The notes under the pieces are model-generated. The model did no database searches and was not told the origin of the DNA. It saw only the letters and a program-made list of their open reading frames with translations. This document shows positions 7,348-58,041 of a stretch of 64,000 nucleotides of DNA, piece by piece (the stretch's first letter is position 1; every line of letters starts with the position of its first letter). The stretch is taken from contig CALXQV010000043.1 in the NCBI GenBank assembly GCA_944390535.1, forward strand, positions 7,056 to 71,055, in the 5' to 3' direction. Source of the stretch: an uncultured Clostridia bacterium (GTDB lineage: Bacteria > Bacillota > Clostridia > TANB77 > CAG-508). The translations under genes were made by a program, and so were the position numbers.

Positions 7348-7526
7348 AAACATCCCACTTCTCCTATGTATATATATTATATTTTAAGCGGGTTTCGTGG
7401 GGACCGACACACTACATACTCTTATTAAATCAGTGACAGTCCCGTGGGAACTGATTTGATTAGAGTATGTAAAGTGTTGGGATAGCGAAAAATATAATAT
7501 ATATACATAGGAAAATTGGGATGTTT
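7348..7526. repeat. long-hairpin intergenic repeat, family B, copy 1
   Basis: The ~139-nt core (7368-7506) is near-identical to 57876-58014. It is flanked by copy-specific 20-nt inverted arms (7348-7367 / 7507-7526, 2 mismatches). Confidence 0.8.
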
Positions 7527-10933: not shown

Positions 10934-12163
10934 CTACAAATATAAAATTGGGCGGAAAGAAATATAATTACCAGTAGAAGTATCGATAGTTTTATTATCA
11001 TGACGGTAGCTCGGGTTACCACCACTAAAGGCATAACAACCACCTCTAGTAGCATAAGGATAATAAGTACTACAAGTACTTTCTGTCACCCATTCTATAC
11101 AATTTCCTGCTATATCATATATATTTAACTGTATATCTCCTGATAATCCTGTTGTTCGTTTTGATGAACTAATTAATTTTCCATCTCGTCTCGAATAATT
11201 ACTTTCTCCATATTTCTGTATAAACAAGATTGCTGTATCCCATGCATAACTATTCATTAAGTCACTATTAATTTCTTCATACAAATCTTGACAGGCAGTT
11301 GCTGCATTTGGTTGATTAATCATCGTCCACGCGCTTTTATTATACTTACTTTCTGCTTTGCCACTGCTCTCTCTGCTTGCTTCAAATCTTGCGATATAAT
11401 ATCCTTCATTTTTCCTAACACTTTCTATAAATCCCTCTATGTCTTTTGCTATTGTATTAGCATATCTACTTTCAACATGTTCTTCTGGCGTTTCTTCTTT
11501 GAAAAATCCTGAATATTCTGTTGGTATCCCTGATGAGTCAAAATCATATCTTCCTAATAATATCTTTTTTTCTCCATTTATTCCTTTTACATCATCGATT
11601 GTTCCATCTTCTCCTAAAATCCCATCTACTGGTATCCATACATATTGGTTTCCACCCTTTGTATTATTTAAGTCATCTCCTTCTACATCTGATATAACTA
11701 ATCCTCCTGTTACAGTACTTCCTTCTACATGGTAAAATCCTTCTGGTATTCTTACTCCTTCTACTACTGTACCTAAGTTTTCTTCTATTGTTATACTTCC
11801 ATCACTATTTATTGTATATTCTCTCTTTGATTCAAATGTTACTGTTAAGGTTTCATCTCCATTATCTATTACTGTTGTATTGTATCCATTCATTTTTAAT
11901 TCTTCTTGTAACTCTGTAGCACTTGCTCCTTTTCCTTCATTATCCACCATCACTCCATTATATGCTATTTTGATTGCTTCTTTTTCTTCTTCTATCTGTG
12001 TTTTATCACTTGCTTGGCTAGCCTTTGTTAAAATCCCATTGTCTCCTGTTAATGTAGCAATTGTTACCCCTGCTAAAATTAACAACACAATCATTGTGAT
12101 AACCAATGCAATTAAAGTAATACCATTATTCCTTTTCTTTTCCTTATTTTTTAGTTTTTTCAT
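10934..12163 (-). CDS. exported protein with pilin-like N-terminal segment and FGE/SUMF1-type (C-type lectin fold) C-terminal domain
   Basis: 409 aa. N-terminus NGITLIALVITMIVLLILAGVTIATLTGDNGILTKAS. C-terminal motifs YIARFEAS, NIYDIAGNCIEWVTE, RGG and ISFRPILY resemble formylglycine-generating-enzyme family signatures. Paralog of 37589-39313. Confidence 0.8.
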   Translation of the reverse strand: MKKLKNKEKKRNNGITLIALVITMIVLLILAGVTIATLTGDNGILTKASQASDKTQIEEEKEAIKIAYNGVMVDNEGKGASATELQEELKMNGYNTTVIDNGDETLTVTFESKREYTINSDGSITIEENLGTVVEGVRIPEGFYHVEGSTVTGGLVISDVEGDDLNNTKGGNQYVWIPVDGILGEDGTIDDVKGINGEKKILLGRYDFDSSGIPTEYSGFFKEETPEEHVESRYANTIAKDIEGFIESVRKNEGYYIARFEASRESSGKAESKYNKSAWTMINQPNAATACQDLYEEINSDLMNSYAWDTAILFIQKYGESNYSRRDGKLISSSKRTTGLSGDIQLNIYDIAGNCIEWVTESTCSTYYPYATRGGCYAFSGGNPSYRHDNKTIDTSTGNYISFRPILYL

Positions 12164-12379: not shown

Positions 12380-12408
12380 ATTCTATTCGTTTTATTGAAT
12401 TAAGTCAA
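12380..12408 (-). promoter_or_regulatory. candidate fixed sigma-A promoter facing 10934-12163, outside the invertible segment
   Basis: Minus strand: TTGACT (12408-12403), 17-nt spacer, TAGAAT (12385-12380). The same hexamers and spacing occur at the paralogous locus. Confidence 0.4.
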
Positions 12409-12441
12409 TATATTGTCGTATTATATTTCTTATATTTTGCT

Positions 12442-12649
12442 TAGATTTCACTACTCTAAGAATTTATACATTCTTCAAAAACCTCTAAACTTCACGTTTT
12501 TCTTGAGTTATATGAATTAAAAAATCTTCTAATTTTCAAATTTTATTAATAGATTTTTACAGGAATTTTTTTGCATAATTTTATTGACTTTTATATATTT
12601 TATTGTTAGAATCGAATTATGAAAATGCTTCTTAGAGTAGTGAAATCTA
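12442..12649. promoter_or_regulatory. putative invertible DNA switch (inverton) bounded by 21-bp perfect inverted repeats
   Basis: TAGATTTCACTACTCTAAGAA (12442-12462) and its exact reverse complement (12629-12649) flank 166 bp that contain a strong promoter. The architecture is duplicated at 39497-39697. Confidence 0.65.
12584..12612 (+). promoter_or_regulatory. near-consensus extended -10 promoter inside the invertible segment, facing away from 10934-12163
   Basis: TTGACT (12584-12589), 17-nt spacer, TGtTAGAAT (12604-12612). Confidence 0.6.
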
Positions 12650-12738
12650 GGAATATTTTCTCTAAATTAGTGAATTAAAAATTTCTATTTTGCTGTTTTT
12701 TATAGAAAAAAGGAAACTAATAAAGTTCCCTTAATACA

Positions 12739-14010
12739 TTACATACCTGTTACTGGTAAAATTCTTTTACTCGTTACTTCTTTTTTATCTACTATTTTTT
12801 CAATTTCTGGTTTTTCTTCTTTATGATTGTTTACTGTCACTGTTATTTCTTCATTTAAGTTTATATCTATTTCAATTAATTCTTCATAAAGTTCATATCC
12901 ACCAATTGTTTTGGTTTCTTTTATATAATATTTACCTGGAATTATATTTTCTATTTCTATTTTTCCATTCTCATCTGTTTCTAAATTTGTATACATTACA
13001 TTTTTATTTTCATCTAATAGCTGAAATTCTACACCCTGTAATTTTTCTTCTGTTTCTTCATCTTCTTTTATTATGATTAATTTTGTTTTATTTTTATTAT
13101 AATAGTCTTTTATTTCTCCTGTTCCATCTTCATAAGTTGATCCAGTTAATGCATAATCTTGTAAATTACCATTTGGGGCTTTTCCATACAAAATTGGTTT
13201 TGTCTCTATCTTTGTTTCTATATGAATTTGAATCGTTTTATCTTCTATCATTTGTTTTATAGGAATTAATAATTTAAAAGTTTCATTTGCATGAAATTCT
13301 TGTTTTTCTTTATTGGTTTCATCTGTTATTTTAACACCTTCAATTTCTTGACCATTTTCATCTGTTACATATACGTTATAATTGTCTATATTTGTTTTAC
13401 TATTTACTTTATACGTTTTGGATACATATTGTGTTTCTAATGTATCTTGTTCCCAATATTCTTCTAATTTTTGAATATCTACTTTATTAGAAATCTGTAC
13501 TTCAGTAGAGCTATTCGCTGCATTTACAATTTGATACATGGCATTTAATGTTCTTTGTCCTGCTTCTCCAATTGGTGCATAATCACTTAATTGGTTTCCA
13601 TGAATATAGCTATAAATCGCATGTTTTGTTGCTGTAAATGCTTCTTTTTCATTAGCAACCTCTAATTTTCCTATAGATTTATATGGATACCCATTTGTTA
13701 CAATTTTCCAAAGCATAACATCTTGTATTGCTTTCTCAATAGAAACTGTATAATTACCTTCCTCTGCTCCAGGTTTTGTTTTATCTAGACAATACGCTGG
13801 ATATCGTTTTCCTTCATGTTCATATTCAATATAGGTAGTTTTTACCACTATTCCTTTATAGGTAAGTAAGTTTCCACAATCTCCTACTGCATATACATTT
13901 ACTGTATTTAAATTAGTTGCTATAACTGAATTTGTAAAGTTTAAGAAGTTCAATGTCATAATAGCAAATATGACACATATGATTTTTAGTCCCTTTTTTA
14001 TTTTATTCAA
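12739..14010 (-). CDS. surface adhesin/pilin-like protein: thioester (TQXA-type) domain plus Cna-B/SpaA-type domain, LPVTG at C-terminus
   Basis: 423 aa. Signal peptide, then the AYCLDKTKPGA, NGYP and FTATKHAIY motifs (TED-like), the Cna-B-like block LQGVEFQLLDENKNV...GKYYIKETKTIGGYEL, and an ending of ILPVTGM-stop. Confidence 0.75.
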   Translation of the reverse strand: MNKIKKGLKIICVIFAIMTLNFLNFTNSVIATNLNTVNVYAVGDCGNLLTYKGIVVKTTYIEYEHEGKRYPAYCLDKTKPGAEEGNYTVSIEKAIQDVMLWKIVTNGYPYKSIGKLEVANEKEAFTATKHAIYSYIHGNQLSDYAPIGEAGQRTLNAMYQIVNAANSSTEVQISNKVDIQKLEEYWEQDTLETQYVSKTYKVNSKTNIDNYNVYVTDENGQEIEGVKITDETNKEKQEFHANETFKLLIPIKQMIEDKTIQIHIETKIETKPILYGKAPNGNLQDYALTGSTYEDGTGEIKDYYNKNKTKLIIIKEDEETEEKLQGVEFQLLDENKNVMYTNLETDENGKIEIENIIPGKYYIKETKTIGGYELYEELIEIDINLNEEITVTVNNHKEEKPEIEKIVDKKEVTSKRILPVTGM

Positions 14011-14029
14011 ATACTTTTCACTTTCCTTT

Positions 14030-14566
14030 CTATTTTTCTTTTTCTACGCCTTGTATACATCTTCTGTACTCTGGTTCATTTTCTACACAAGTAATTAGTG
14101 TAATTGTATTTTCTTCTGTTGGCTCTAAAAGACTCCAATCTGTATTTTTTATTATCTCATGTTTTGTTACTATATAGATTTTTTCTATATTTCCATAGGT
14201 ATATGTAATTTCATCTCCTTCTTGTAATTCTTTTAATCGCCCAAAATAGTTATTTTTATATCCTCTATTATGTGCTGCTAAACATATATTTCCTAAATTT
14301 TTAGAAGATTCTTCAAAATGTCCAACATAATCTTCTAAGATTTTTTGGCTAGTTCCTTCTTGTATAGGTGCCTTTAAAGCTATTTTATCTATTTGAATAT
14401 ACCAGTTATCTAACGTATTTACTTCATCTAGATTGCTAGTATTATCTTCTTCTAAATTTTTTGAATCAATTGTTTGATTTTGAATTAAATTTTCTTGTGT
14501 TGTAAAATCGACTTTAAATTCTATTGTTTGTAATCTTAAAATGTCACTATGAAATAAACTATTCAT
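14030..14566 (-). CDS. sortase (cysteine transpeptidase); true start probably upstream at a non-ATG codon
   Basis: 178 aa from the first ATG. Catalytic His (LAAHN) and Cys (TLITC), with a conserved Arg near the C-terminus. The membrane anchor is encoded in frame upstream (see finding). Confidence 0.85.
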   Translation of the reverse strand: MNSLFHSDILRLQTIEFKVDFTTQENLIQNQTIDSKNLEEDNTSNLDEVNTLDNWYIQIDKIALKAPIQEGTSQKILEDYVGHFEESSKNLGNICLAAHNRGYKNNYFGRLKELQEGDEITYTYGNIEKIYIVTKHEIIKNTDWSLLEPTEENTITLITCVENEPEYRRCIQGVEKEK

Positions 14567-14830: not shown

Positions 14831-15027
14831 AGAATAATAGCGGGCTTTTTAACATTTTTACATTTCTCGCTTCGCGAGTACTTTTCTCTACTTTTCTAAT
14901 TTAACTATATAATTTTAAGTTCTCAAAGAAGCGTAAAGATTAGTCGACGCGAAAAATTGCTTTGCAATTTTTCTGTGCAATGTTGTTTTTTGTTGAATAG
15001 AAAAAAGCAATTTTTCCTATTCAAGAA
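14831..15027. repeat. multi-hairpin intergenic repeat, family A, short (module-deleted) copy
   Basis: Aligns with both ends of the copies at 23078-23400 and 53263-53590 but lacks the ~130-bp internal block. Confidence 0.8.
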
Positions 15028-15072
15028 CAAAAAAGGGCAATCCTAGGTTCTCTAGAACGCCCTCTCCTGTTT

Positions 15073-23077: not shown

Positions 23078-23400
23078 AGAACAATAGCGGGCTTTCTTAA
23101 ACATTTTCTCTATTCATAATATTTTAAAGCCCGCGTTATTGTTCGGCGCCAAATTTTACGCAAGTAAAATTTGTGTGCAATCGTTAGAGCGAAGCGATGT
23201 TCTTGAAAAGGAAAACCTCGATTTTTCCTTTTCAAGTGACAAATCTCGCTTCGCGAGAACTCTTCTCTAATTTTCTAATTTGACTATATATATTTAAGTA
23301 ATAGAAAAAACGTAAAGTGTCGACGTGAAAAATTGCTTTGCAATTTTTCTGTGCAATGTTATTTTTTTTAGAATAGGAAAATTCGATTTTTCCTATTCTA
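23078..23400. repeat. multi-hairpin intergenic repeat, family A, full-length copy
   Basis: ~323 bp, roughly 85-90% identical by eye to 53263-53590. Contains at least 5 hairpins. Confidence 0.85.
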
Positions 23401-23427
23401 AAAAAAATAAAAGCCAAATTGGCTTTT
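23401..23427 (-). terminator. intrinsic terminator after 23426-24691
   Basis: Minus strand: AAAAGCC-AATTT-GGCTTTT followed by ATTTTTTTT. The stem overlaps the stop codon. Confidence 0.65.
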
Positions 23428-31890: not shown

Positions 31891-32646
31891 ATGGAAAATA
31901 ATAAAAACTCTCAAAATAATGAAAAAGATATAAGATATTATGCAAAAGTACATTCAATAGAGACCTTTGGTGCAGTTGATGGTCCAGGAATTCGCTTTGT
32001 ATTATTTCTTCAAGGATGTCATTTACAATGTAAATATTGCCACAATCGTGACACTTGGGATATGAAAGAAGGAACATATCAATCTGTTGATGATATTTAT
32101 AAAATGATTTTAAAATACAAAAATTACATTACCCCAAATGGTGGTGTTACTGTTTCTGGTGGAGAACCTTTATTACAAGTCAAATTTTTAATAGAATTAT
32201 TTACAAAGTTAAAAAAGAAAAAAATTCACACTTGTATTGATACCTCAGGAATGGTAGCATTAACAGAAGATGTCAAGCAGTTACTAGGTCTAACTGATTT
32301 AGTTTTATTAGATATTAAACATATTGATAGTGGAAAGTGTAAAAATTTAGTAGGATTTGATAACAAATTAGAATTAGAATTTGCAAAATACTTAAGTGAC
32401 AATCATATACCAATATGGATTAGACAAGTATTAGTTCCTGGCTATACAGATGATGAAAAAGATTTACGAACATTAAAAAAATTTATTTCTACTTTAGATA
32501 CAGTTCAAAAAATAGAAATTTTGCCATATCACAGTATTGGTAAATATAAATGGACAAAATTAGGATTGAAATATGATTTAGAAACCATTACAGATGCTAC
32601 GAGTGATGATGTAAAACGTGCAAAAGCAATTTTAGGAATTAGCTAA
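31891..32646 (+). CDS. pflA: pyruvate formate-lyase activating enzyme (radical SAM)
   Basis: 251 aa. Contains the radical-SAM CxxxCxxC cluster motif (CHLQCKYCHN) and the GGVTVSGGEP motif. Lies immediately downstream of pflB. Confidence 0.95.
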   Translation: MENNKNSQNNEKDIRYYAKVHSIETFGAVDGPGIRFVLFLQGCHLQCKYCHNRDTWDMKEGTYQSVDDIYKMILKYKNYITPNGGVTVSGGEPLLQVKFLIELFTKLKKKKIHTCIDTSGMVALTEDVKQLLGLTDLVLLDIKHIDSGKCKNLVGFDNKLELEFAKYLSDNHIPIWIRQVLVPGYTDDEKDLRTLKKFISTLDTVQKIEILPYHSIGKYKWTKLGLKYDLETITDATSDDVKRAKAILGIS

Positions 32647-32755
32647 AAGGGAATTTGGGGACGGACTCATTTTTCCCTTTTTTATATTCTATATTTTTTG
32701 AATTTTTACTGATATCAAAAAAGGGAAAAATGAGTCCGTCCCCAAATTCCCTTTT
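32645..32755. terminator. perfect 39-bp-arm palindrome between convergent genes (back-to-back terminators)
   Basis: AAAAGGGAATTTGGGGACGGACTCATTTTTCCCTTTTTT (32645-32683) and its exact reverse complement (32717-32755). Each arm alone folds as AAAGGGA..TCCCTTT followed by a T run. Confidence 0.75.
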
Positions 32756-32757
32756 TG

Positions 32758-33693
32758 TTACATTCCTAACAATTTTAATTCAACATTTTCCATTTTGTAT
32801 TTTCCTTGAACTAGCTTAAATTCTACTAACGTGTCTTCTAATGTTTCTTTATTTTGTCTTAAATCTGTTGTAAAATATAACTTGATTTGTGAAATTTCTA
32901 GATTATTTTTTACAATTTCTTTAAATGTCTCTGCCATATGTTTTTCATCTTCACATATTAAAATTAATTGTGGCATTGCGACAAACCCTGAGTCTCCTAG
33001 CACATAGTTTTCATAGAATTCTTTATATAGTCTCATTCTTTCTACAAGTTTTTTCTCCCAATCTGGCTCTCTTCTGATAACTTCAAAAACAAATTGAATT
33101 GATTTTTTATTCTTTGTAAGTTTTACTGCCCCACCACTTGCTTTAAATAGCTTTCCTGAAATTTTGGCCGTGATGGCTGGTTTTACGATATAACTATCAA
33201 ATGCTTTTACTTTTCTTAAATATGCAATTAATGTTTGGTTTCCAGCTAGTCTCTTTTTTATCATTGGTACGGGTTTTGTATTATCAGATGGTTGCCACTT
33301 ACAATCAATTTCTTTAGAGTTTAATAAATATTTTCCCATCTTTTCTAAACAATAAATTCTATAGATTCCTTTACCTTCATCAGAAGTAAAGTAATATCTT
33401 GTTAATATTTTAGATTTTACTAGTTGGTCTAGTTTGTTATTTAATTTATCTTGTGACTTAGGGTCAATTCCTTTGATTTCTAGCATTTGATACAATTGTC
33501 TTGATGTGATAAATTCAAATTCATTCACTAAGTCTAAAATTGCAAAATGGATTTCATTGATATGTCCTATATTAATCTTATGTACGATTTGGTTCATTGA
33601 CACATATCCATCTTTTCCGTCGAAAGTTTTAATTTCACCTTCTCTAATAGCAAATGGAGATACTTGTGCCTTGATTTCATTATCTTTTACCAT
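32758..33693 (-). CDS. hypothetical protein, possible winged-helix N-terminal region (weak resemblance to replication-relaxation family)
   Basis: Start set at the ATG preceded by AGGAGGGA (MVKDNEIK). The motif AILDLVNEFEFITSRQLYQML resembles the wHTH of PF13814-type proteins. This is a low-confidence product call. Confidence 0.55.
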   Translation of the reverse strand: MVKDNEIKAQVSPFAIREGEIKTFDGKDGYVSMNQIVHKINIGHINEIHFAILDLVNEFEFITSRQLYQMLEIKGIDPKSQDKLNNKLDQLVKSKILTRYYFTSDEGKGIYRIYCLEKMGKYLLNSKEIDCKWQPSDNTKPVPMIKKRLAGNQTLIAYLRKVKAFDSYIVKPAITAKISGKLFKASGGAVKLTKNKKSIQFVFEVIRREPDWEKKLVERMRLYKEFYENYVLGDSGFVAMPQLILICEDEKHMAETFKEIVKNNLEISQIKLYFTTDLRQNKETLEDTLVEFKLVQGKYKMENVELKLLGM

Positions 33694-33748
33694 TTTTATT
33701 TTCCCTCCTATAAATTTAGAATTATCTATATTTTTTATAATAAACCAC

Positions 33749-34546
33749 TTATTGTTCAATTAACAATTTTACTTTTTTCTTTTCTTTATCTATTTTTTTG
33801 ATATATACATCTACTTTTTGCCCATATTGATATCCTTCTTCATATTCTGCCATTCCCACTAAGTTTGGTGTTAATTCGATAAAAATACCATTTTTATTTT
33901 TTTCTGTTTCTCGAATAATTCCTCGTACTTTCATTCCAGAAGTGAAATTTTTAATGTTTTCTTCCCATGTTCCTAAGGTCTCTTTATATGACAAACTAAC
34001 TTTTCCTGTATATCTATCTATACATTTTACCACAACATTTACTTTTTGTCCAATTTTTAGCCTTTCATAGGGTGTTTTGATTCTCGCTACAGATAAATCT
34101 TCTATATGTGCTAGTCCAACAACACCGCCTCCAATTTCAATAAATGCTCCATATGGTCTAATATTTTTTACAATTCCTGTAACATTTTCACCAACTTGCA
34201 TATCTTTTTTTATATATTGCAGAGTTTCTTGTTGAACACTTTTTCTAGATAGAAATACTGTATTAGCATTTTCAATGTTTTCTATTTTAAATTGTACATA
34301 TTTATGCACTTTTCCTGTACATAATCTTTCATCTGGCAAGCCATCTTGACTATTTTCTACTTCACTTCTTGGGATAATTCCCTCTATGTTATTCCCTAAT
34401 TCAATATGTAAGTTATATTTTTCATCACAGCTTTTTACAATTCCTTGAATGGTTTTATTTTCTTGTTGATATTTTTGTATCTTTTGTAAGTTTAGATTTT
34501 CTATCTCTTCATTCCAACCTTCTGGCACAAATCGAAATGTATTCAT
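33749..34546 (-). CDS. S1 RNA-binding domain protein (three S1-like repeats)
   Basis: 265 aa. Central canonical S1 motif GENVTGIVKNIRPYGAFIEIGGGVVGLAHIEDL. Confidence 0.8.
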   Translation of the reverse strand: MNTFRFVPEGWNEEIENLNLQKIQKYQQENKTIQGIVKSCDEKYNLHIELGNNIEGIIPRSEVENSQDGLPDERLCTGKVHKYVQFKIENIENANTVFLSRKSVQQETLQYIKKDMQVGENVTGIVKNIRPYGAFIEIGGGVVGLAHIEDLSVARIKTPYERLKIGQKVNVVVKCIDRYTGKVSLSYKETLGTWEENIKNFTSGMKVRGIIRETEKNKNGIFIELTPNLVGMAEYEEGYQYGQKVDVYIKKIDKEKKKVKLLIEQ

Positions 34547-37588: not shown

Positions 37589-39313
37589 TTATCTTATTGT
37601 GAGACATATACGAAATCCGTTGCCACTAGGACTACCATTATATCCTGCAGTAGTAGCAAAGGTAAATAAACCTACATTCGTATTTTTATAATATCCTCCT
37701 CGTTGAAAAAACGGAAATGCATCTCCATCTTTAATACCTACAAATCGAGATAATACTGAATACCATGAACCAGTTTCACTTTCTGATGTTGATGTCTCTG
37801 TTGTTGCATCTCCAAATATTCTATTTATATTTACATTATAATTATCTGTTGAACTATTTGAAGTCGCCATCTGATACACTGTTGCGTATTTTGTGCTTTC
37901 TTTTTTATTATTTGTTTTATTATCTATTGAGGCAAATGAATTCCCATATGTCTGAGTAGAATCTGCAACATAGCTTGCTATATATTCATATGCCCCTCCT
38001 ACCATATCATATATTCCATATTCATTTCCTGTTGTGCTTTGTAATTTGTTTTTTGATGGTGTTGCTCCACTTGCTCCTCCAGTATAATAACCACTACTAC
38101 TATTTTTTGTTATTGCTGTTCCATTTCTTCCATATTTACTTTCTGTTAAATATGCTACTACTCCCCATTCACTATTTTTCATCAGATGGCTCTCTTTATC
38201 TCTATCATAGTCATATCCTTTGGTATACATTGTTCCTATTGTTGTACTCCTATAACTGGTTACTCCTGGTATTGATTTTATTGTTGTACCACTTTGGCTC
38301 ACCTCATATTTAGCTACCCATATTCCTTCTAATTTACTATCCCATTCTCCTTGTGAAAATCCTGTTAAAGTACCATTTTCAAATACTGGATGTACTCTTA
38401 ATTTATTTTTTCCTACTGCTACACCTGTTACAGGTTCTCCTAAATCACTTGGTGTTTTTCCTTCTATATTTACAATTCCTCTTGCATCACTATATCCTAC
38501 AATTCCTTCTGTTTTTGTGTTATCTGCTCTATATGCTTCTTTATGTTCTGGCGTATCAAAATATATAATTCTATATGCATATCTTGGTATCCATACCCAA
38601 TAACTACCATCTTTTGTTTTTGCATTTGCCCAATGGCTTGTTCCTCCTGATGCTGTTGTTCCAGCTTGTACTGTATATTGATACCAGTTATTTTCATCAA
38701 ATTCTGCTTCTCCTTCTTCTATTTCTGTTCCATCTTCTTCCCAATATACTTTTTTCATATCACTTGTCATTTTTGGCTCATTTGGTGTTGTTGCTATATC
38801 ATAACTTGTACCAGTTAAAAATTCTATCTCTATTAGCCCATTTGCTCTTGTAAAGGCAGGTTCTTTTGATACTTCTGGGGTTTTTTCTGGCTCTCTTATT
38901 GTATATTCTGTTACATTTCCCATTTTGTCTACAAAATAACTTCTCCCATTATCATAATTTTCTGTTATGGTTACAATGTATCCTTCCGTTCCCTCTTCAT
39001 TTGTTCCTGGCTCTACTATATATTTTCCATCAGTAAAATATTCTCCTAATTCTTTTTCCAAATTTTCTTGAATAACTTCATCTCCATCTGCTTTTGCTAG
39101 CGCTCCTAGCGCAGATAGCTCCACTTTTTCCTTTTCATCTGCTAGTTCTGTTTTCTCACTTGCTTCACTCGCTTTTGCTAATATTCCATTTTCCCCTGTT
39201 AGTGTTGCAATTGTTACGCCTGCTAATATAAGTAACACAATAATAGTTATGACTAATGCAATTAACGTAATCCCATTATCTATTTTACTTTTTTGTCTCT
39301 TTATTTTACTCAA
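37589..39313 (-). CDS. exported protein with pilin-like N-terminal segment and FGE/SUMF1-type C-terminal domain (paralog of 10934-12163)
   Basis: 574 aa, TTG start with a GGGGGA SD. N-terminus NGITLIALVITIIVLLILAGVTIATLTGENGILAKAS. C-terminal motifs WVAKYEVS, GIYDMVGGAYEYI, RGG and NGFRICL. Confidence 0.8.
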   Translation of the reverse strand: MSKIKRQKSKIDNGITLIALVITIIVLLILAGVTIATLTGENGILAKASEASEKTELADEKEKVELSALGALAKADGDEVIQENLEKELGEYFTDGKYIVEPGTNEEGTEGYIVTITENYDNGRSYFVDKMGNVTEYTIREPEKTPEVSKEPAFTRANGLIEIEFLTGTSYDIATTPNEPKMTSDMKKVYWEEDGTEIEEGEAEFDENNWYQYTVQAGTTASGGTSHWANAKTKDGSYWVWIPRYAYRIIYFDTPEHKEAYRADNTKTEGIVGYSDARGIVNIEGKTPSDLGEPVTGVAVGKNKLRVHPVFENGTLTGFSQGEWDSKLEGIWVAKYEVSQSGTTIKSIPGVTSYRSTTIGTMYTKGYDYDRDKESHLMKNSEWGVVAYLTESKYGRNGTAITKNSSSGYYTGGASGATPSKNKLQSTTGNEYGIYDMVGGAYEYIASYVADSTQTYGNSFASIDNKTNNKKESTKYATVYQMATSNSSTDNYNVNINRIFGDATTETSTSESETGSWYSVLSRFVGIKDGDAFPFFQRGGYYKNTNVGLFTFATTAGYNGSPSGNGFRICLTIR

Positions 39314-39431: not shown

Positions 39432-39460
39432 ATTCTACTTACTTTGTATAAATAAGTCAA
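39432..39460 (-). promoter_or_regulatory. candidate fixed sigma-A promoter facing 37589-39313, outside the invertible segment
   Basis: Minus strand: TTGACT (39460-39455), 17-nt spacer, TAGAAT (39437-39432). Confidence 0.4.
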
Positions 39461-39496
39461 TATATTGTCGTATTATATTTCCGCTTTTTTACTTGA

Positions 39497-39697
39497 ATTT
39501 CAATACTCTAGGAACATACAGTACTTTTCAAAACATTGGTATTTTAAGCTTATAAGGTTTTTACTATTTTAAAAACGCTTTTAATTCTTAAATTTTATAT
39601 ATGTTTTTTTCTTAATTTTTTTCGTATCTTTTTATTGACTTTATTAATCTATATTGTTAAAATTTAGATGTAAAAAATGTTCCTAGAGTATTGAAAT
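39497..39697. promoter_or_regulatory. putative invertible DNA switch (inverton) bounded by 21-bp perfect inverted repeats
   Basis: ATTTCAATACTCTAGGAACAT (39497-39517) and its exact reverse complement (39677-39697) flank 159 bp that contain a strong promoter. Confidence 0.65.
39635..39663 (+). promoter_or_regulatory. near-consensus extended -10 promoter inside the invertible segment, facing away from 37589-39313
   Basis: TTGACT (39635-39640), 17-nt spacer, TGtTAAAAT (39655-39663). Confidence 0.6.
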
Positions 39698-39802
39698 CTA
39701 CGAACATTTTTATTTTTTAATGTATTTGAACTATAAATTCTCTTTCTATTTTTAAGTCATTTTTTTATTTTTACCTAGTCGTATTCATAACAATTATTAG
39801 CA

Positions 39803-39840
39803 AAAATAGGTACTCAATTTTAATTTTGAATACCTATTTT
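39803..39840. terminator. hairpin terminator 3' of mfd
   Basis: AAAATAGGTACTCAA / TTGAATACCTATTTT stem (1 mismatch), A/T-flanked on both sides. Confidence 0.55.
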
Positions 39841-39881
39841 TATTAAATTATATCATGAGACATAACTTCAAATATATTAAA

Positions 39882-42800
39882 CTATATTAACTTAGTCATT
39901 CTGTTTTTTAATAAATTTAAGAACTCTGTTACATCATTCAAAATCTTTATTTCGTTATCTGTACCAATTTCTAAAGTAATCATAGGTTTAATCCCTGCTG
40001 AAAATTTTAATCTGTTTCCATATTCTTTCACTAATTCTACCACATCATATTCAAATTGACTTTCTTCAAAAGTAAAAACAACCGCTGTTTTCTTGCTTGC
40101 AATTTTAGAAATATGAAATGTTTTTGCTAAATATTTAATTCTTGCAATATCAATCAAATTCTCTAATTCAGCTGGCATGTTACCAAATCTATCAATAATT
40201 TCATCAATCACATTTTGAATATCCTCTTCATTTTTACATAACGCAATATCTTGATAAATTTCAATTTTTTGATTAGCATCTGAAATATAGTCATCTGGAA
40301 TATAGCTTGTAACATTCAAATCTATTTGAATATCTACCTCTGGTTTTATTTCAATTCCCTTCATTTCTTTGATAACTTCATCTAATAAGTTACAATATGT
40401 ATCATAACCAACTTGCTCCAAATGTCCTGATTGAATTTCTCCTAGTAAACTTCCTGCTCCTCTAATTTCTAAATCACGCATGGCAATTTTAAAACCTGAG
40501 CCAAACTCTGTAAATTCTTTGATTGCTTTTAATCTTTTATCTGCTACTTCTGATAACAATTTGTCTCGTTTATAAGTAATATATGCATAGGCTTGCCTAT
40601 CACTTCTTCCTACTCTTCCTCGTATTTGATATAACTGTGCTAGTCCCATTCTATCTGCATTTTCAACAATAATGGTGTTCGCATTTGGAATATCAATTCC
40701 AGATTCCAAAATAGTTGTACATACCAATACATTTGATTTCTTTTGAATAAAATCATTCATAATTTCTTCAATCTGGTTTCCTGACATTTGTCCATGTGCA
40801 TAAGAAACTTCAGCCTCTGGTACTAATCTTGATATCTCATCCGCTTTCCTTTGGATATTTTCCACATTGTTAAAGATATAAAATACTTGACCATCTCTTT
40901 CTAATTCCTTGGTTATTGCTTCTTTTATGACTTCTTTATCATATTCTAATACATAGGTTTGTACAGGTCTTCTATTTTGTGGTGGTTCATATATAACAGA
41001 CATATCTCTTACTCCCACAATAGACATATGTAATGTTCTTGGAATTGGTGTGGCTGTCATTGTTAACACATCCACATTGGTTTTATATTGTTTAATCTTT
41101 TCTTTATCTTTTACACCAAATCGATGCTCTTCATCGATAATGAGTAATCCTAAGTCTTTAAATTCCACATCTTTGCTAAGGATTCTGTGTGTTCCAATAA
41201 CAACATCTACTTCTCCCAATTTTAAACCTTTTATCACTTCTTTTTGATATTTTGCAGATTTAAATCTGTTTAGAATTTCTACTTTTATAGGATATTCTTT
41301 CATTCTTTCTTTAAATTCTTGATATTGTTGTTCTGCTAAAACGGTTGTTGGTGCTAAATATGCCACTTGTTTTTGGTCCATAACCGCTTTAAATGCTGCC
41401 CTTATAGCTACTTCTGTTTTACCATATCCAACATCCCCACATAATAATCTATCCATTGGTTTTGGCTCTTCCATATCTTTTTTAACTTCTTCTATGCAAC
41501 GTAGTTGGTCATCTGTTTCTTGGTATGGAAATTTTGATTCAAATTCATTTTGCCAAGGGGTATCTTTACTAAAGTTAAATCCTTGTGATTTTTCTCTCTT
41601 AGCATATAATTCGATTAATTCTGTTGCCACTTCTCGTAAATTTTTCTTGACCCTTGTTTTGGTATTTTCCCATTCTTTGCTTCCTAATCGATTAATCTTA
41701 GGACTGATTTTGTCTCCACCTACATATTTTCGAATCATATCCATTTGATTGGTTGGTACATATAAAATATCATCATTTTTGTATTTAATTTTAATATAGT
41801 CTTTAATGGTTCCATCTGCTTTAATCGTATTGACACCAATATAGATACCAATTCCATAGGTTTTATGAACGACATAATCTCCTATTTTTAAATCAGCAAA
41901 TACAACCTTTTCACCTTCACTATATGCGGAATGAACTGCTTTTCTTTTTCTCTTTTCCCCACTAATCAATTCATCTGCTGAAATAACTAATTGATTAATT
42001 TCATAATTTTCAAAACCAGAAGATATTTTCCCAATTCCTATGGTAACAACTTTTTCGACTGTTTTTACCACAATGGTTTTGTCTAATTTTTCTTCTATGT
42101 TACAAATAATATTTTCTTTTTCTAGGATTTCCTTTAATTTTTTTGCCTTTTCTTTATTCTCTACTAAGATATATACACTCTTTTTTTGCTTTAAGGCTTC
42201 TTTCAATTCTTGGAATAGATTTTCAATCTCACTTTTATAAAAGTTAACTTCTCGATATTGGAAAACATATTTTTCTGCTTGTTTATTGGTTATACTATCT
42301 TGTTTTTCTAAATAAATTAAGTTTCTTTTTCCATTTTTTAAACTGTCTTCAATTTCTTCATATTCAGCTGTGTTTTCTAAACTTTGAGGAATCATTTTTC
42401 CTTTTTCTATCAAAGCATTAAATAAATTTTTTCTATCTTGTTTTATATTGTCTGTTCTTTGTTCTATTTTTCTTTCTTCATCTAATGCAATAATATATTT
42501 ATCAGATAAATAGTCTAATAAAGTAACAGAATGTGTATAGAAACAATCAAAATATTTATCCATTTTACTGATATAGTTCCCGCCAATAATTTGCTCTATA
42601 TCTTCTTCTATAATTTCTTCTTGTTTTTCATTCATGCTTAAATTTTTAATCTGTTCACATACTCGGTCTATCGGTTGTTCTAATATATATTCATGCGCTG
42701 GATAAATCTCTACTTTTTCTAAAGTGTTAATAGACCTTTGGCTAACGATGGCAAAATTTCTAATAGAGTCTACTTCATCTCCCCAAAATTCTATTCTAAC

Positions 42801-43343
42801 ACCAATTTTATCAGAAACAGAAATATCTAAAATACCACCTCTAATGCTAAATTGCCCTCTTCCTTCTATTAAATCACATCTCACATATCCTAAATTGACT
42901 AATGTTTTCTTTATATCTTCTAAAGAATAGATATCTCCTACTTTAAAATGTAATAGATTTTTAAATAGAACTTCTTTTGGCGGTAATTTTTGCATTAAAG
43001 CTTCTATTGTTGTCACAATGATTGGATTTCTTTTTTCTCTTATTTTACTTAATACTTCTATTCTTTCATATGGCAAATCTTTGCTTTCTGCAATATAGTC
43101 ATATGTGACAATTTCCTTTTTAGGGAAGATGTCTCCTCTATCTGTAAAAGCTTTTATATTGTTGACAATTTCTTTTGCTTGAATCTCATTATATGTAACA
43201 ATAAGGATTGGTCTTTTGGCATATTCATTGATACCAGCTAATATTTCTACCATTCCTACGCCAGTTAAGCCCGATAACATAATCGGACTTTTTTCATTTT
43301 CAATTTGGTTTATTAATGTCACAAACTTTCCGAGATTTTCCAA
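39882..43343 (-). CDS. mfd: transcription-repair coupling factor
   Basis: 1153 aa. CarD/RNAP-interacting domain, superfamily-2 helicase motifs (LLCGDVGYGKTEVA, DEEHRFG) and TRCF C-terminal domain. Only a TTG start is available in frame. Confidence 0.95.
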   Translation of the reverse strand: MENLGKFVTLINQIENEKSPIMLSGLTGVGMVEILAGINEYAKRPILIVTYNEIQAKEIVNNIKAFTDRGDIFPKKEIVTYDYIAESKDLPYERIEVLSKIREKRNPIIVTTIEALMQKLPPKEVLFKNLLHFKVGDIYSLEDIKKTLVNLGYVRCDLIEGRGQFSIRGGILDISVSDKIGVRIEFWGDEVDSIRNFAIVSQRSINTLEKVEIYPAHEYILEQPIDRVCEQIKNLSMNEKQEEIIEEDIEQIIGGNYISKMDKYFDCFYTHSVTLLDYLSDKYIIALDEERKIEQRTDNIKQDRKNLFNALIEKGKMIPQSLENTAEYEEIEDSLKNGKRNLIYLEKQDSITNKQAEKYVFQYREVNFYKSEIENLFQELKEALKQKKSVYILVENKEKAKKLKEILEKENIICNIEEKLDKTIVVKTVEKVVTIGIGKISSGFENYEINQLVISADELISGEKRKRKAVHSAYSEGEKVVFADLKIGDYVVHKTYGIGIYIGVNTIKADGTIKDYIKIKYKNDDILYVPTNQMDMIRKYVGGDKISPKINRLGSKEWENTKTRVKKNLREVATELIELYAKREKSQGFNFSKDTPWQNEFESKFPYQETDDQLRCIEEVKKDMEEPKPMDRLLCGDVGYGKTEVAIRAAFKAVMDQKQVAYLAPTTVLAEQQYQEFKERMKEYPIKVEILNRFKSAKYQKEVIKGLKLGEVDVVIGTHRILSKDVEFKDLGLLIIDEEHRFGVKDKEKIKQYKTNVDVLTMTATPIPRTLHMSIVGVRDMSVIYEPPQNRRPVQTYVLEYDKEVIKEAITKELERDGQVFYIFNNVENIQRKADEISRLVPEAEVSYAHGQMSGNQIEEIMNDFIQKKSNVLVCTTILESGIDIPNANTIIVENADRMGLAQLYQIRGRVGRSDRQAYAYITYKRDKLLSEVADKRLKAIKEFTEFGSGFKIAMRDLEIRGAGSLLGEIQSGHLEQVGYDTYCNLLDEVIKEMKGIEIKPEVDIQIDLNVTSYIPDDYISDANQKIEIYQDIALCKNEEDIQNVIDEIIDRFGNMPAELENLIDIARIKYLAKTFHISKIASKKTAVVFTFEESQFEYDVVELVKEYGNRLKFSAGIKPMITLEIGTDNEIKILNDVTEFLNLLKNRMTKLI

Positions 43344-53262: not shown

Positions 53263-53590
53263 AGAACAATAGCGGGCTTTCTTAAACATTTTCTCTATTC
53301 ATAATATTTTAAAGCCCGTGTTATTGTTCGTGTGCCAAATTTTACGTAAGTAAAATTTGTGTGCAATCGTTAGAGCGAAGCGATGTTCTTGAATAGGAAA
53401 AAACGATTTTTCCTATTCAAGAACAAATCTCGCTTCGCGAGAACTTTTCTCTACTTTTCTAATTTAACTATATATCTTTAAGTTCTCAAAGAAGCGTAAA
53501 GATTTGTCGACGCGAAAAATTGCAAGGCAATTTTTCTGTGCAATGTTGTTTTTTTATTGAATAGGAAAAAGTGATTTTTCCTATTCAATA
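53263..53590. repeat. multi-hairpin intergenic repeat, family A, full-length copy
   Basis: ~328 bp, collinear with 23078-23400. The hairpins are preserved by compensatory substitutions. Confidence 0.85.
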
Positions 53591-53704
53591 AAAAGAATTG
53601 ATACAATCAATCCTTCTTTAAATATTTTACATTGTTTACAATATTAAGTCAATAAAAATGACTTATCGGTATCAATATTTAGAGATTTATCTAGTTATAG
53701 AAAA

Positions 53705-57848: not shown

Positions 57849-58041
57849 TTTCAGTTCAGGGGGGATTTTGCGGAGGTATATATATTATATTTTAAGCGGG
57901 TTTCGGGGAGACCTACACGCTACATACTCTTATTCAATCAGTGACAGTCCCGTGGGAGCTGATTGAATTAGAGTATGTAAAGTGTTGGGATAGTGAAAAA
58001 TATAATATATATACCTCCGCAAAATCCCCCCTGAACTGAAA
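57849..58041. repeat. long-hairpin intergenic repeat, family B, copy 2
   Basis: The core 57876-58014 matches 7368-7506. The outer 27-nt arms (57849-57875 / 58015-58041) are perfectly complementary and unrelated to those of copy 1. Confidence 0.85.

Follow-up and report, generated by a model that had tools for sequence, protein, structure and literature searches.

A 201-bp element at positions 39497-39697 of a 64,000-nucleotide stretch of DNA from an uncultured gut Clostridia genome (the stretch analysed here, hereafter called the window) is probably a promoter switch that works by site-specific recombination (an inverton) and governs the gene of a pilin-like surface protein. The element, designated switch 2, is flanked on one side by the 3' end of mfd (39882-43343, - strand) and on the other by the 5' end of a gene for a 574-aa protein (Table 1). 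Its ends are formed by 21-nt arms, 100% complementary to each other and 159 nt apart, and the segment between them carries a promoter-like sequence, P_inv. This anatomy, exact arms flanking a promoter-bearing segment, had been described in an earlier note; when the arms, promoter, spacer and hairpin were read again, its coordinates and sequences were all found correct, as was its statement that the promoter, on the + strand, faces away from a gene on the - strand. An exact 21-nt inverted repeat of this kind is far above chance expectation: the window contains five perfect inverted repeats of 21 nt or longer at distances of 30-600 bp, and 60 first-order Markov simulations gave none. A sister element, switch 1, is found in the same arrangement upstream of the gene for a 409-aa pilin-like protein (10934-12163, - strand), with its invertible promoter at 12584-12612 (+ strand) and its fixed promoter at 12408-12380 (- strand).

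Table 1. Positions of the main features of switch 2, its surroundings and its sister element in the window.
Feature	Position	Strand	Description
Gene-proximal repeat arm, switch 2	39497..39517		ATTTCAATACTCTAGGAACAT
Gene-distal repeat arm, switch 2	39677..39697		ATGTTCCTAGAGTATTGAAAT
Invertible segment, switch 2	39518..39676		159 bp; outside the promoter, 38% of columns invariant (n = 3 copies)
P_inv, invertible promoter-like element	39635..39663	+	TTGACT-17-TGtTAAAAT, extended -10, points away from the gene
P_fix, fixed promoter-like element	39432..39460	-	TTGACT-17-TAGAAT, outside switch 2, facing the gene
28-nt block	39454..39481 and 12402-12429		AAGTCAATATATTGTCGTATTATATTTC; identical at both switches, just outside the proximal repeat
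Dyad with flanking A and T runs	39673..39718	+	ATGTTCCTAGA-GTATTGAAA-TCTACGAACAT
Strong bidirectional hairpin	39797..39846		terminates mfd; -18.8 kcal/mol, z = -5.9
Regulated gene (putative)	37589..39313	-	574 aa
Switch 1 (sister)	12442..12649		arms 12442-12462 and 12629-12649, exact 21 nt

The two switches share the repeat core ATTTCA[A/C]TACTCTA[G/A]GAA, in agreement with the claim that they are built on the same inverted repeat. At the two positions where the cores differ (A/C and G/A), both arms of each switch have the matching variant. In switch 2 the proximal arm comprises a 9-bp asymmetric spacer, TTTCAATAC, and an inner half-site, TCTAGGAA. Two inverted half-sites around a spacer are the usual architecture of a recombinase core site, and each end of a switch appears to constitute one such full site, with the half-sites TTCYTAGA and TCTARGAA placed around the 9-bp asymmetric spacer. 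The distal dyad reads TTCTTAGA-GTAGTGAAA-TCTAGGAA in switch 1, TTCTTAGA-GTATTGAAA-TCTAGGAACAT in a third copy, L096, and TTTTCTTAGA-GTTCAATAC-TCTAAGAAAA in a fourth, L021 (see below for both). The outer half-sites on the proximal side are weaker, being TCTAAGCA in switch 1, TTCAAGTA in switch 2 and TCCAAGTA in L021; by reading, TTCAAGTA fits the TCTARGAA consensus poorly, and both outer half-sites of switch 1 fit it well.

L096 was retrieved by searching metagenome contigs with the repeat pair, and its alignment with switch 1 and switch 2 yielded a footprint, defined as the columns invariant in all three independent copies. The invariant fraction was 0.81 in the left repeat, 0.76 in the right repeat, 0.88 in the T-run (UP block) plus -35, 0.83 in the extended -10 and 0.79 just outside the distal repeat, at the outer half-site. 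It was 0.33 in the promoter spacer, 0.38 in the remaining 108 nt of the segment and 0.14 in the sequence beyond. The three-copy alignment thus confirmed that the P_inv hexamers are kept between switches while the rest of the segment has diverged, and the pattern looks like what one would expect if a functional promoter were flanked by functional recombination sites. The hexamers themselves (TTGACT at 39635-39640, TGtTAAAAT at 39655-39663) agree with the consensus at 10 of 12 positions, with a TG before the -10, the top score in the region, which one other site also reaches. Since promoter-like matches are no more numerous here than in shuffles of this 28% G+C sequence (5 found versus 5.8 expected), the identification of P_inv rests on its conservation rather than on its match to the consensus.

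In the contig that carries the third copy (ERZ1643249 NODE-50804, 1-720), each flank of the switch is of the distal type, and the two are inverted copies (95% identical) of the 3' end of a GT4(WecA-like)-rubredoxin gene. The contig is one of two things: a genuine inverted duplication around the switch, or a fold-back chimera in which two strains are joined; in a chimera, one junction would be that of the inverted state and the other would be window-type. No switch was found downstream of the 96% homologues of this flanking GT4-rubredoxin gene.

The orientation of switch 1 was scored in public assemblies holding the exact 409-aa protein. The window and three of these assemblies (L010, L011 and L012) share one orientation, and a further scaffold, L013 (ENA ERZ28614620 scaffold_21030, 1-60), has the switch inverted, with the promoter directed towards the 409-aa gene. 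The scaffold begins 33 nt inside the segment and reads TATTTTATTGTTAGAATCGAATTATGAAAATGC, then TTCTTAGAGTAGTGAAATCTA, then AGCAAAATATAAG onwards: here the repeat connects the gene-proximal flank to the -10 end of the inner promoter, and the flanks are identical, as in an inversion in situ. A break inside the segment is as expected at an assembly bubble. The inverted state of switch 1 in L013 indicates that this type of switch inverts in nature, and we infer that switch 2 does so as well.

Contigs covering switch 2 were sought with the 574-aa protein (exact and in a 99% variant), with mfd and with the neighbouring DUF362 gene. All five assemblies obtained (the window, L001, L002, L014 and L095) have the window orientation, and none has the opposite one; the look-up through the DUF362 gene contributed nothing new on orientation. 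A further contig, L108, does not reach the switch, as it breaks inside the gene. In the strain represented by L002 and L014, 2 of the 21 arm positions of switch 2 are mismatched. Inversion of switch 2 would create the junctions CTTTTTTACTTGAATTTCAATACTCTAGGAACATTTTTTACATCTAAATTTTAACAATA and GTTTTGAAAAGTACTGTATGTTCCTAGAGTATTGAAATCTACGAACATTTTTATTTT. Uniformity among consensus assemblies is weak evidence against inversion, because some proven switches of C. difficile sit at 0.5-4% inverted (PMC5903667). A conserved 22-mer of the cassette, TCAATATATTGTCGTATTATAT, had no match in the genomes of 185,579 species or in JGI metagenome contigs, so that the species is not represented in those sets, and the repeat pair had no match in viral contigs.

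Besides P_inv, the 574-aa gene is faced by the fixed promoter-like element P_fix, whose -35 on the - strand is provided by the 28-nt block common to both switches. The switch 1 equivalent of P_fix has identical hexamers at the homologous place and a diverged spacer. A perfect 10-bp palindrome, CAATATATTG (39458-39467 and 12406-12415), overlaps the P_fix -35 and is, by its sequence, a candidate operator. The corresponding elements are also found in L021 (CASFHP010000021, 11168-11330), a shorter, promoterless cassette in a related MAG. In L021 the dyad sites are 69 nt apart around a bidirectional terminator and are followed by the P_fix block and then by a pilin-like leader, here fused to a DUF285/LRR domain in a coding region apparently split into two ORFs. 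The P_fix equivalent of L021 is TTAACT-17-TAAAAT and its palindrome, by reading, is AACATGTT, a symmetric double change relative to CAATATATTG. Because the repeat-bounded segment of L021 contains only the terminator, its gene must depend on the fixed promoter, an argument that this promoter is functional. Genes for a cohesin-domain protein and a sortase come after this cassette. With a conserved P_fix facing the gene, a simple ON/OFF reading of switch 2 is probably too strong: the "OFF" state probably corresponds to basal or regulated expression rather than to silence, and the 574-aa gene would seem to have no need of P_inv. The leader between P_fix and the start codon is unstructured. A cwpV-type terminator switch was considered and rejected, the only fixed promoter being downstream of switch 2 and the leader being without structure.

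On the opposite side, transcripts from P_inv in the window orientation would run into a hairpin formed by AAAAATGTTC (39673-39682) and GAACATTTTT (39702-39711), with ATTTTTT behind it. Its stem can be extended to 15 nt at 93% (39673-39687 with 39697-39711; -12.8 kcal/mol, z = -3.05). The earlier note had described this as a terminator-like structure that exists in one orientation only. That holds for the hairpin with its U-run, which is present in the RNA of the window orientation and gone from the modelled inverted RNA, but not for the dyad as such, which is found in every copy, the U-tail being confined to switch 2. The primary role of the dyad is more likely, to judge from its distribution, to be recombinase binding than termination. 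The strong hairpin that terminates mfd would also halt outward transcription from P_inv.

In the model that we favour, two TTCYTAGA-9-bp-TCTARGAA sites in inverted orientation would bound the 159-bp segment with its sigma-A-type promoter, and P_inv, with its extended -10, would be strong. In the window orientation P_inv would fire away from the gene into the hairpin and U-run, leaving the 574-aa gene with P_fix alone, probably under operator control. In the inverted orientation P_inv would read through the proximal repeat and P_fix into the gene and so create a high-expression subpopulation. The recombinase would be encoded outside the window and would probably serve switch 1 as well. Promoter activity, the type of recombinase and its action in trans are points that we infer.

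No recombinase domain was detected in ORFs of 100 aa or more across the 64-kb window, which reaches 24 kb from switch 2 in one direction and 39 kb in the other; nor was a recombinase gene found next to the L021 cassette. One remote recombinase with a regulon is plausible by analogy, the Cdi2/Cdi5 pair and RecV of C. difficile providing a precedent. The odd length of the spacer between the half-sites (9 bp) favours a tyrosine over a serine recombinase, and a serine invertase was judged less likely on the same ground. The spacers differ by one base between the two switches (TTTCAATAC in switch 2, TTTCACTAC in switch 1). If the enzyme is a tyrosine recombinase, this difference would disfavour recombination between switch 1 and switch 2, an event that would invert or delete 27 kb including sigA and dnaG. 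The TTCYTAGA-N9-TCTARGAA site offers a compact, sequence-defined motif for tracing the recombinase.

Among known systems, the Cdi switches of C. difficile (cwpV/Cdi1, flgB/Cdi4, cmrRST/Cdi6, Cdi2/Cdi5; RecV) are closest in lineage and size. They too occur in the class Clostridia as intergenic segments of ~150-230 bp with ~20-nt repeats, several per genome and mostly without an adjacent recombinase, although the host here is an uncultured gut Clostridia lineage and not C. difficile. The cwpV and flgB switches act after initiation, via a terminator or Rho, and have their promoter outside the switch; unlike these, the switches of the window have a putative promoter inside the segment and a second, fixed one downstream. 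Seven switches of 154-230 bp are known in C. difficile; a pair of them has identical repeats, and a remote tyrosine recombinase serves them (PMC5903667). The two that share their repeats, Cdi2 and Cdi5, resemble the switch 1/switch 2 pair, a likeness drawn from layout (PMC5903667). In the logic of shared repeats and a trans-acting recombinase, the closest counterpart is provided by the Mpi-controlled capsular polysaccharide loci of Bacteroides fragilis, where many promoter-bearing segments have a common repeat core and depend on one recombinase in trans (PMC5903667). Those loci differ from the present ones in phylum and in target genes. Mpi is a serine recombinase whose repeat consensus is ARACGTWCGT, and by reading this consensus is absent from the repeat ATTTCAATACTCTAGGAACAT.

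The fimS switch of E. coli is similar in design: a promoter in an invertible segment drives a pilin-type gene, and recombinase half-sites lie on either side of a short asymmetric core repeat, as is proposed for switch 2. It measures 314 bp and has 9-bp repeats, its recombinases FimB and FimE are encoded adjacent to it, and fimA is without a second fixed promoter; unlike fimS, switch 2 has no recombinase gene among its neighbours. Group 139 of the Clostridia invertons, with repeats of 13-25 nt, segments of ~206-228 bp and repeat motifs shared within the group, nearly always has a tyrosine recombinase within 5 kb (PMC11892184). This group, known from PhaseFinder-type surveys, resembles switch 2 in repeat length and layout; it differs in that switch 2 has no recombinase over the far greater distances given above.

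The 574-aa protein begins with a type-IV-pilin-like helix, GITLIALVITIIVLLILAGV (sub-threshold N_methyl match; PilE1 8pfb, E = 1e-3). Its C-terminal region is weakly FGE/C-type-lectin-like (Pfam FGE-sulfatase, sub-threshold, E = 0.005), and a PDB profile search returned 5vf4_A (E = 1.2e-4), which we take to be a DGR variable protein, and PvdO (0.14). In the AlphaFold model the N-terminal two-thirds are confident and pLDDT falls below 50 at residues 380-574. More than 7,800 metagenome homologues were found, none with a Pfam domain or a name. The N-terminus NGITLIALVITxIVLLILAGVTIATLTG occurs in the window only in the 574-aa and 409-aa proteins, which share 59% identity over their first 76 residues and can hardly be aligned beyond.

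The window is chromosomal, as its genes (sigA, dnaG, adhE, pflBA, mfd, topB, leuS and addB) indicate, and the immediate neighbourhood of switch 2 comprises mfd, the pilin-like gene, a DUF362 gene and SpoU methylases. The window Mfd is 88-94% identical (best segment) to the Mfd of several uncultured Clostridia MAGs of animal-gut origin (chicken, "BRZ" and other samples); Clostridium sp. CAG:343 and Candidatus Scatovivens are among the more distant relatives. Just upstream of switch 1 lie genes for a thioester-domain/SpaA-fold (TED-SpaA) adhesin of 423 aa and a sortase (12739-14566), which makes the region rich in surface-protein genes; a strong bidirectional terminator is found at 12710-12732.

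Orthologues of the 574-aa gene in related species also lie beside mfd and are followed downstream by bAvd and a reverse transcriptase gene (RVT_1). In these, the last ~150 nt of the gene are matched by a downstream template repeat. All 29 variable-region mismatches in one orthologue (L005, 4071-4511) and 24 of 29 in another (L006, 4000-4432) fall at adenines of the template repeat, and on this pattern both genes are bona fide DGR targets. At these two loci a small divergent XRE-type HTH gene occupies the place of the switch. The 574-aa protein of the window is a homologue of DGR targets; no template repeat for its gene was found in the 64 kb and no reverse transcriptase among the window ORFs. 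Upstream of the closest syntenic orthologues (L003, 84% identity; L018, L019 and L059) there is no cassette, the sequence there being unrelated and at most ~350 bp long. That the syntenic loci of the closest species lack the whole cassette suggests that it was acquired as a unit, and recently. Its occurrence in L021 before a different passenger domain suggests that its travelling companion is the conserved N-terminal leader and not any particular passenger domain.

Gut bacteria are well known to vary their surface by means of invertible promoters, and the switch itself is unsurprising. What deserves notice is the target, which belongs to a very large, unnamed family with a pilin-like N-terminus and a putative lectin-type variable domain. 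In the sister species the protein is hypermutated by a DGR, and at the window locus a flip-switch cassette is found instead of the retroelement. It is conceivable, if doubtful, that the cassette is portable among paralogous surface-protein genes, that at the mfd-linked locus it replaced DGR hypervariation, and that its copies answer to one remote recombinase. Such a cassette would consist of a dyad site, the promoter, a second dyad, the operator-bearing P_fix, the leader and the coding sequence of the pilin-like N-terminus, and would spread by recombination in the conserved N-terminal coding region. DGR hypervariation would then have given way to ON/OFF (or high/basal) variation, with the spacer differences keeping the copies apart. 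If the switch in front of the 574-aa gene is confirmed, one surface protein would be subject to two programmed diversification mechanisms in neighbouring uncultured Clostridia lineages of animal guts.

Several other readings of switch 2 were weighed. It may be an ex-inverton, locked or decaying, in which inversion is nil or negligible and the gene is expressed from P_fix alone, and this we regard as unlikely. The orientation shared by all five assemblies, the imperfect arms of L002 and L014 and the poor proximal outer half-site TTCAAGTA are what such a state would leave behind, and L021 shows that cassettes of this kind can decay, its sites persisting without the promoter. In the window strain, however, the arms are perfect, the promoter hexamers are kept across copies and the sister switch is active, and low-frequency switches look uniform in assemblies too (PMC5903667). 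There is also a small chance that the switch inverts with an output other than turning the gene ON and OFF, such as a choice between a regulated and a constitutive mode, a short terminated RNA, or an antisense transcript to the convergent gene. The conservation of P_fix, with the palindrome over its -35, in switch 1, switch 2 and L021 speaks for this, as does the direction of P_inv, which points at a convergent gene at both loci (mfd and the TED-SpaA adhesin); but outward transcripts should be halted short of the upstream genes by the hairpin with its U-run and by the strong bidirectional terminators at 39797-39846 and 12710-12732, and the regulated-versus-constitutive version refines the main model rather than contradicting it.

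It is very improbable that the element is a MITE, or a chance repeat, without any function in recombination. Several copies exist (switch 1, switch 2, L096 and L021) and the window has other repeated elements flanked by repeats, as would suit a MITE; by reading, however, there are no target-site duplications at switch 1 or switch 2, the inversion in L013 took place in situ with identical flanks, the copies are always joined to the same P_fix block and pilin-like leader, and conservation is confined to the sites and the promoter. Nor are many dispersed copies apparent, the cassette 22-mer being missing from the genome and metagenome sets named above. The MITE reading was rejected on the absence of target-site duplications and the in-situ inversion in L013.

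Other repeated elements also occur in the window. Positions 57849-58041 and 7348-7526 hold two intergenic copies, 91% identical, of an unrelated class with 45-nt perfect arms in one case and 38-nt arms at 95% in the other, and with 103 nt between the arms of each pair that are comparatively G+C-rich and contain a palindrome of their own. They may represent a MITE, some structured RNA or a different class of invertible element; an Rfam search over the whole window returned no family. A further intergenic element of ~130-330 bp is repeated at 14831-15033, 23078-23410 and 53263-53597, with copies up to 99% identical, and ends in palindromes of the type TTGAATAGGAAAAA...TTTTTCCTATTCAA; a similar palindrome, TATAGGAAAAA...TTTTTCCTATA, flanks the switch in L096. 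Finally, a 44-nt, 95% complementary, G+C-rich hairpin at 32640-32760, between pflA and a gene with a weak Replic_Relax match (32758-33759), is probably a strong bidirectional terminator.
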